From assembly GCA_020051075.1 (NCBI GenBank), contig JAGVJP010000120.1:62001-111491 (forward strand): a stretch of DNA of 49,491 bases, in the 5' to 3' direction. Both the position numbers and the translations under genes were made by a program. The notes beneath the pieces were generated by a model, which did no database searches, was not told the origin of the DNA, and saw nothing but the letters and a program-made list of their open reading frames with translations. Source of the stretch: Parachlamydiales bacterium. GTDB lineage: Bacteria > Chlamydiota > Chlamydiia > Chlamydiales > Parachlamydiaceae. This document shows, piece by piece, positions 11,811 through 13,187 of this stretch (its first letter is position 1; each line of letters opens with the position of its first letter).

Positions 11811-13187
11811 ATGAAAAAATTTTTGTCTGTTGTGCTATTTCTTATGAGCGCGTTTCCTCTGACGCTATCTTCTCTGACTGCGACTACCGCAACTCCAGAG
11901 AAACCACCGATCCTCATAGGCATGAGTACCGCTCTTAGCGGTCCTGCTGGAGAATTGGGCCGCGGCATGCAATTGGGTGTAGAGATCTATTTTGCCAGGA
12001 TTAATGTTAGCGGGGGCATTGGAGGCCGCCAATTGAAGCTGATCACCTATGATGATGGGTATGAACCCGAGCGGGCGGCCCTCAATGTGCGAGAACTAAT
12101 TGATAGAGATCATGTTTTGGCATTGATTGGCAATGTAGGTACACCCACTGCAGTTGTGACTGTTCCGATTGCAAATCAAAAAAAAACGCTCCTTTATGGT
12201 TCATATAGCGGTGCGGATATTTTACGCAAAACCCCGCCTGATCGTTATGTGATCAATTTCAGGGCAAGCTATGCAGAAGAAACATCGGCGATGATAAAGG
12301 CTTTATTATCCATCGGCATCAAACCTGATGCAATAGCCTTTTTTATACAGGATGATAGTTATGGCCAATCGGGTTATTTGGGTGCAATCCAAGCTCTTAT
12401 GGCAGAAGGATTTCCTCACCCTGAAATGTTGCCTCATGGTCGATATCTGCGGAATACATTAAATGTTGAAGAAGGGTTGGCTGACTTAATCAATGGGCTC
12501 GCAACTCCCAAGGCGATTATTCTGGTTGGTGCCTATGCGCCAATAGCAAAATTTATTAAAAAGGCTAAGTCAGTGTTTTCTCCCTCCCCACTTTTCTTAA
12601 ATGTTTCTTTTGTAGGGACAACGTCTCTAGCGCGGGAATTAGGAAAAGAAGGTGAAAATGTGATTGTAACGCAAGTCGTGCCCCCATTCGATAGTGCTCT
12701 GCCTGCAGAAGCTCAATATCAGGCTGATCTAAAAAAATATGGCGACGATGCTCAACCTAGTTTTGTTTCCTGGGAGGGTTATTTAGCGGCAAAGTTATTC
12801 GTCATAGCTTTGGAACATGCAGCAGCAGAGAACGCCTTGACGCGCGAAGGGATTATCGATGCCTTTGAACAGATGCGTGATGTGAATATTGGAATCGGGG
12901 TAAAGATTAGCTTTGATAAAGAACATCACCAGGCATTGCACAAAGTGTGGCCGACAATCTGGAAAAATGGACAATTTGTTTCCTTTGATTGGGGGCAGCT
13001 GCCCTTATACCAGCATCTAGTGAAAATTGCCTATCTGGACTGCGCCAAAGCCCCGGGGTTGAACGATCGTAAATCACCCAATATTAAATCAATATGGGGT
13101 GATTTACGATCGTTCAACCGCGGGAGCTTTCGCGCAAGTCCAGATAGGCAATTTTCACTAGATGCTGGTATAAATGAGGTTAAATGA
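11811..13187 (+). CDS. Periplasmic ligand-binding protein (LivJ/type I PBP family) with a palindrome-derived C-terminal insertion
   Basis: Signal peptide from ATG 11811; [45 protein letters not shown] and QDDSYG motifs. Confidence 0.88.
13006..13172. mobile_element. In-frame palindromic element inside a CDS (RPE-like)
   Basis: 37-bp perfect outer inverted repeat (13005-13041 / 13137-13173), an inner arm of about 28 bp and a 5-nt loop. TA-flanked; 163 bp plus one TA equals 165 bp, or 55 codons. Confidence 0.85.

Follow-up and report, generated by a model that had tools for sequence, protein, structure and literature searches.

The window analysed here, a stretch of 49,491 nucleotides from a Parachlamydiales genome (G000), contains a divergent signalling cluster in which 9417-11363 on the minus strand encodes a receiver protein and a HisKA/receiver/adenylate cyclase, and 11811-16117 on the plus strand encodes a periplasmic binding protein followed by a hybrid histidine kinase. 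In another genome (G004, locus L093) binding protein and kinase are arranged divergently. Four codons before its stop the binding-protein gene is interrupted by a long palindrome, and the features of the locus are as follows.

11811-13187, plus strand: periplasmic binding protein gene (Peripla_BP_6), 458 amino acids from the ATG at 11811, 55 of them element-derived
13006-13007, no strand: left TA, positions 2-3 of a Leu codon; putative target-site copy
13006-13041, plus strand: left outer arm, its first 26 nt laid out like IS630 terminal repeats (best match 17/26)
13008-13170, plus strand: palindromic non-autonomous element, 163 bp, recognised by its fold, self-alignment and copies
13042-13060, plus strand: conserved core, left half, with unpaired C13046 and G13056
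13061-13115, plus strand: inner variable stem and AT-rich loop, both sides changing together across genomes
13116-13135, plus strand: conserved core, right half, with bulged A13125 and unpaired G13120 and C13131
13137-13172, minus strand: right outer arm, ending in the right TA (13171-13172)
13173-13187, plus strand: original last codons NEVK*, with a GAGG ribosome-binding-like site at 13176-13179; overlaps the next start (ATGA)
13184-16117, plus strand: hybrid histidine kinase (HisKA, HATPase_c, two receiver domains), its start overlapping the binding-protein stop

The hairpin at 13005-13173 is confirmed. The window sequence pairs perfectly over 37 nt from both ends, as the initial annotation had described, and folded as RNA it reaches -138.3 kcal/mol (z -22.6), a value that none of 200 shuffles equalled. 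The outermost pair, T13005/A13173, is flanking DNA and lies outside the element proper, which leaves the unit already proposed from the sequence: TA (13006-13007), 163 bp (13008-13170) and a second TA (13171-13172). Since TA is self-complementary, the two copies flanking the element may be a duplication or may be carried by it. Element plus one TA adds 165 bp, or 55 codons, to the gene; the frame that the host gene reads is free of stops, also as first stated, and the encoded peptide ends ...SLDAGI. In size and ends the unit resembles a MITE, having 163 bp, perfect 36-bp arms and no transposase gene, the 55-codon frame being all that it encodes. Its inner arms differ from one another at fixed sites (C13046/C13131, the bulged A13125 and G13056/G13120) that recur in other copies and in other genomes. 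Nine element loci returned no Rfam match at the gathering score, only generic microRNA-hairpin matches far below threshold.

Removal of 13008-13172 joins the binding protein to its original last codons, NEVK*, and the restored end that had been predicted (...WGQLPL-NEVK*) is right in kind when set beside homologous proteins. We compared the best 120 of 6628 homologues, 119 of them from other sources; the closest, P0152 (88%), ends ...FDWSEVK like the predicted empty form, while P0153 (75%, labelled Chlamydiales) reads FDWDQLHLN...NEAK and P0154 reads DWSQLHFN. Not one of these 119 carries the 55-residue tail, and their tails beyond a conserved Trp measure 0-42 residues (median 7), whereas the tail measures 64 here. 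An AlphaFold model from 83 sequences gives the binding domain mostly above 90 pLDDT and lets the tail (401-458) drop from 73 to 36, and the 55-residue addition is predicted to be loose. The insertion is probably near neutral. A single-sequence fold of the protein was uninformative (pLDDT 36) and was set aside. At the DNA level, the exact flank pattern had 0 matches in metagenome contigs, the 80 related metagenome loci were at most 53% identical and so gave no empty site for this gene, and no useful paralogous empty site was found within G000.

The element is dispersed through the source genome, where blastn locates 22 loci and nhmmer (E 0.05) 28. Nine copies are full-length (164-168 bp, 84-98% alike) and are accompanied by partial ones; they lie in unrelated flanks, as MITE copies do, and every full copy has TA at both ends. 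The arms of each full copy are self-complementary at 32-35 of 35 positions, even where they have diverged from other copies, and the binding-protein copy differs by 7-14% from every other. Two of the nine lie within genes; both are read in one frame and they alone are stop-free, the remaining seven having stops in all six frames. The second is at C6:21545-21711, within a conserved protein of 1465 amino acids whose orthologue is present in 58 of 72 family genomes; all five orthologues aligned lack exactly 55 residues at the insertion site. Host-protein orthologues lack the peptide, rather than carrying it without the palindrome, and the element is not single-copy; the opposite on both counts, or reads showing an assembly fold-back, would have spoken against the initial annotation, and neither was observed. 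The 1465-aa protein (C6:20707-25104; L070:708-5105) also misses about 230 residues present in all five aligned orthologues, some 150 residues downstream of its insert. A third in-gene copy, in PbpC (TIGR02073), is trimmed to approximately 21 codons, and the PbpC orthologue in G009 (68%) is without it, the net gain in G000 being 11 residues.

A SecA-like ORF of 4453 amino acids contains a fourth copy, in frame, of which a decayed half is left; a paralogue is equally long at this place, making this weak evidence for insertion, and we count it only as a replaced stretch. G000 has a family of giant SecA-DEAD-domain ORFs of up to 4500 amino acids (C109:583-13944, C54:7810-21327, C54:2-7480 and C132:15081-27914). 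Elsewhere in G000, a full copy at C70:11953-12118 (L073) provides the last codons and stop (...YTGI*) of an NAD(P)H-hydrate epimerase/dehydratase gene in a different frame. Around 25 solitary element ends of 15-28 bp, mostly intergenic near gene starts or stops (for example C23:8614, C93:79795, C104:5891 and C105:2083), and internally deleted forms of 32-80 bp (C23:6276-6355, C51:4450-4485, C80:37983) may be traces of deletions driven by the hairpin.

According to a crude ORF call, ORFs contain 79% of the TA sites in G000, and insertion would be in frame at 14%. The in-frame copies look like survivors of random insertion at TA because in the remaining seven full copies all six frames contain stops, and their restriction to in-frame positions within genes, though in small numbers, fits purifying selection after untargeted insertion. 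The element has been mobile in the recent past and is in frame by survival.

Relatives of the element occur in 41 of the 73 genomes of the family, G000 counted. The exact core pattern recovers at least 121 loci and, among the 80 titles listed, 59 are chlamydial and 21 bear other labels, the taxonomic placement being as submitted. For 103 of 114 recovered elements the surroundings could be scored by mechanical ORF calls: eight lie inside an ORF of at least 100 amino acids, five extend one, 31 have a gene stop inside an arm and 59 are otherwise intergenic. No gene family recurs as a neighbour of the 114. A profile search found the element peptide in unrelated predicted proteins of other genomes, among them TamB, a glycosyltransferase 92, a sulfotransferase, an outer-membrane efflux protein, a NUDIX protein and a MerR protein; the profile included the flanks of P0003, with the result that about half of its 150 matches are AbiEii homologues and not element copies. 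P0003 itself (AbiEii-like), the sole match of that profile compared for an empty site, has an exact 55-residue insert after Val relative to seven of seven homologues. At the protein level, empty orthologous sites are seen for the binding protein, the 1465-aa protein, PbpC and P0003. Of the in-frame matches of at least 100 amino acids to a fixed pattern, 19 of 21 have Leu, Ile or Val immediately ahead of the element's first Tyr, as an NTA codon requires. The single DNA-level empty site, G065 against G066/G067, has the TA together with some 15 bp of further difference; a second candidate (G081 against G080/G082) is too diverged, and a congener comparison for L060 gave no match.

On sequence grounds, this in-frame palindrome belongs to a new chlamydial MITE family that is RPE-like in behaviour, with its insert read as a predicted peptide. 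The original suggestion of an RPE-like insertion in a chlamydia is borne out by several unrelated genes and by orthologues of the host proteins that are without it, and that of a non-autonomous element targeting TA by copies that are TA-bounded, gene-less and numerous.

The ends of the element additionally point to transposases of the IS630 family, which the initial annotation did not name. Members of the IS630 family use TA as their insertion site, which they duplicate, according to the part of the literature consulted (PMC2170065). The left end of the IS630 copy at L334 is identical to the arm of the element at L117 over 26 of 26 positions, and a match to one of 36 IS630 termini at 19 or more of 26 positions is found for 26 of 65 distinct arms, whereas 300 shuffles with the first five bases fixed gave a mean of 0.10 and a maximum of 2. 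Arms of the TATAC type match IS630 termini at 20 or more in 20 of 27 cases. Those of the TAGT type lie in a C-TA-G context (left C in 28/32, right G in 29/32), and the IS630 copies at L337 and L340 are also in C-TA-G context, adjoining TAGT-type elements. Near one such CTAG-type IS630, L337:112-981 (G061) holds two decayed core-like hairpin halves about 750 bp apart, which enclose short tandem repeats and another element. At L334:667-832 (G021) the IS630 adjoins a TA-bounded element of 165 bp with matching arms, an unrelated interior and a non-palindromic core.

For the binding-protein copy itself no exact IS630 partner was found; its arm matches the 36 tabulated termini at 15/26 and the L392 end at 17/26, which is within background. 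G000, an assembly of 133 contigs, has no IS630 by either DDE_3 or tblastn, and among all loci and in G000 there was no split or expanded element that could be an autonomous partner. The mover of this copy's subfamily is therefore probably lost, unassembled or passing through. DDE_3 is present in 27 of 73 genomes and, by eye, does not track the element, which occurs without DDE_3 in G000, G018, G056 and G065 and is missing from G001 and G075, where IS630 copies are many. Of 401 genomes of the order, 13 have the window's type of end, which was not the end of a transposase at any of nine loci inspected; of five of the 13 genomes checked, one had DDE_3, with ends that do not match.

Our preferred reading, to which we assign a probability of roughly 70%, is that a gene-less, fully palindromic MITE, likely moved in trans by IS630, came to lie in frame near the stop of the binding-protein gene and gave it a predicted 55-residue tail. 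An IS630-family transposase would bind the outer ~25 bp of the element, cut it out and paste it at TA with duplication of the TA; an insertion within a gene would survive only if the site tolerates it and the variant has a length of 3n and no stop, and surviving inserts would then decay or be trimmed.

The unusual part of the chlamydial family is one core with exchangeable ends. Across 36 aligned elements, 60 of 76 pairs change on both sides, the invariant core columns being a product of the pattern search itself. All 112 distinct cores carry a mismatch at the position immediately beyond the searched pattern (C.C 101, G.G 6, other 5), and the pairs adjoining it covary. Regardless of arm sequence, 75 of 79 elements keep a distance of 40-42 nt between core and terminal TA. 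Several end types surround this core, within G000 too, and the window's end type is also found around other cores (window 9056-9188, L382, L383). The hairpin at 9056-9188 is a second TA-ended one, of 133 bp, that has its first 10 bases in common with the element family and a different core, and is related to CACAGAG repeats at 297-401 and 46110-46202. Elements of the GG...CC end type have 3-bp direct repeats (TWA: TTA or TAA) in 10 of 10 cases, and these are a true target duplication; IS5-type (PF13586) loci have ends with TWA repeats in 12 of 22, none of them matching the GG-type arms (best 14/20). Mismatches in the arms show no G.U bias (G.T 41, A.C 47), which favours correction of the arms at the DNA level over selection on one RNA strand.

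Given this anatomy, the central hairpin may itself be the selfish unit, with a protected mismatch and bulge, a fixed length, re-templated arms and ends swapped across transposases, an extension that we hold tentatively and think doubtful. Such a core would be carried by transposases of several IS630 subgroups, at TA or CTAG, and by an IS5-like transposase at TWA. It would endure across chlamydial families as its movers changed, and would keep introducing a stop-poor insert of 55 residues into proteins; if true, this would supply a testable mechanism for protein-invading palindromes.

Less probable, and in our view improbable, is recognition of the conserved mismatched core by an enzyme that cuts at a fixed distance, for instance a REP-associated tyrosine transposase acting on a single-stranded hairpin, in which case the arms would resemble IS630 ends through capture of neighbouring ends. 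The constant spacing of the terminal TA, whatever the arm, and a position that is always mismatched among covarying pairs would suit such an enzyme, as would Y1 transposases in 52 of 73 genomes, G000 among them, and two RAYT-like genes with an element nearby (L357, L358). Those two, however, were chosen for an adjacency already seen, while 17 other Y1 regions had none; any element match at all was present at 3 of 30 Y1 loci (one partial, one half, one weak), RAYT-like loci are flanked by their own, different repeats, and the TWA duplication of one arm class is of the 3-bp direct kind typical of DDE transposases. An association with RAYT was rejected on this basis, since element copies do not flank these genes. 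Many RAYT-like Y1 genes (L311-L326) are each flanked by a REP-like repeat cluster of their own.

The initial proposal that the element adds peptide modules to proteins stands in so far as in-frame insertion is not confined to one gene but recurs in unrelated ones; it is better read as a tolerated by-product than as a function, because most copies are intergenic or overlap stops and the in-gene variants are only those that are stop-free and 3n long. We think it quite unlikely that the 55-residue peptide is a selected functional module, such as a membrane or partner-binding tail, spread by the element. One frame is reused across many unrelated proteins, 40 of 66 TA-delimited elements have a net length divisible by three, and the AlphaFold model shows weak helices in the tail; moreover, 26 of the 66 have at least one frame free of stops, compared with 8.9 for shuffled palindromes, but this count takes in gene-filtered copies and related sequences and the shuffle is crude. 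The inserts are nevertheless lineage-specific and missing in all orthologues tested, they decay (down to 21 codons in PbpC and by erosion in the 4453-aa ORF), their changes track arm pairing and not amino acids, and the peptide has no match to any family model.

Very unlikely is a main role as RNA, in which an RNase III-cut or message-stabilising stem would tune the downstream kinase, with the frame incidental and perhaps little full-length product. The stem is very stable, 4 nt separate its end from the ribosome-binding-like site of the kinase, a gene stop falls inside an arm in 31 of the 103 scorable relatives, and effects of this kind are reported for Correia and ERIC elements in the part of the review that treats them (PMC10969869). 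Yet the arm mismatches lack the G.U bias, elements occur in both orientations relative to flanking genes, and gene stops overlap arms because stop codons contain TA; an RNA effect could in any case be a side effect rather than an alternative origin. No RNA run among the public sequencing runs is listed as containing the source genome, all shares being below 0.2.

An assembly fold-back or mis-join hardly deserves credence, even though in eight public sequencing runs no read bridged either junction at a 31-base standard (one 151-nt read piece spans 12865-13015 without differences, only 8 nt beyond the left TA) and a different copy is divided between the ends of two contigs (C86, C105), because the arms are not mirror copies inside and differ at fixed positions that recur in other copies and genomes, and, further, the copy differs from every other copy, its junctions are codon-exact against orthologues, and the same frame recurs in other genomes.

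In-frame palindromes are already known. RPEs, first described by Ogata et al. (2000, 2002) as related in sections of two reviews, are palindromes lying in frame in Rickettsia genes (PMC10969869, PMC2229807). The accounts consulted also describe one Rickettsia in-frame insert as near neutral for guanylate kinase, and in-frame insertions of ERIC and YPAL, including a C-terminal amidase fusion (PMC10969869, PMC2229807, PMC2759123, PMC3184786). The chlamydial element works alike but, with no match in NCBIfam, Rfam, E. coli genomes or plasmids, is by sequence not a member of these families. Like the RPE as there described, it is a long single hairpin of similar size, multi-copy in an intracellular bacterium, and its in-frame copies in conserved, mutually unrelated genes encode one recurrent peptide. 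It differs in length (163 bp, against 105-146 bp in Rickettsia), in a lower in-gene share (2/9 full copies), and in that its full copies are all TA-ended and sister arms match IS630, whereas the RPE table gives target duplication as unknown. NCBIfam holds RPE models, and the chlamydial peptide matched no family model there (E 0.5, a search with the in-frame peptide only).

The enterobacterial ERIC (RU-1, 127 bp) and YPAL (RU-2, ~168 bp) are, in the same partial accounts, palindromic MITEs like the chlamydial element; ERIC has TA ends and an in-frame C-terminal amidase fusion, as in the chlamydial binding protein, whereas YPAL has no terminal TA and makes duplications of 3-26 bp (PMC2759123, PMC2229807). 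A blastn search with the chlamydial element found no match in 20,395 E. coli records (E 10) or 72,556 plasmids (E 1). RUP of the pneumococcus, as outlined with IS630-Spn1, is likewise a MITE with a TA target and ends matching an IS630 element, a link argued equally indirectly; it has six-frame stops, is intergenic and has one end type described (PMC2229807), whereas the chlamydial family is palindromic over its whole length, with several end types around one core. REP/REPIN-RAYT and TIRtrons, in the portion describing them, are also imperfect palindromes with conserved asymmetry, some of them in genes (PMC3733652). Unlike them, the chlamydial element is without a GTAG/CGTC tag, RAYT-like genes are flanked by other repeats, and at least one chlamydial end class has target duplications.

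Our full-text literature search found no description of this element family, although the supplements of a MITE census (PMC11602168) could list such sequences; chlamydiae go unmentioned in the accessible main text of PMC10969869, PMC3184786 and PMC11602168. For the entry of RPE-type palindromes into protein genes, the reviews, in the sections devoted to them, name no mover. The chlamydial family offers a matched pair of element and transposase (the L117 arm and the L334 end) that can be tested experimentally, and its natural series from intact to trimmed inserts is material on how proteins absorb foreign peptides.

The window also holds repeats of other kinds. Paired CAGGATA/TATCCTG inverted repeats, forming a dense family of their own, occupy intergenic gaps at 7693-7822, 16099-16356, 19691-19884, 23746-24052, 28095-28311, 37426-37670 and 46008-46365, and a long array of an 18-bp tandem repeat, with at least 18 copies, lies at 28868-29304.
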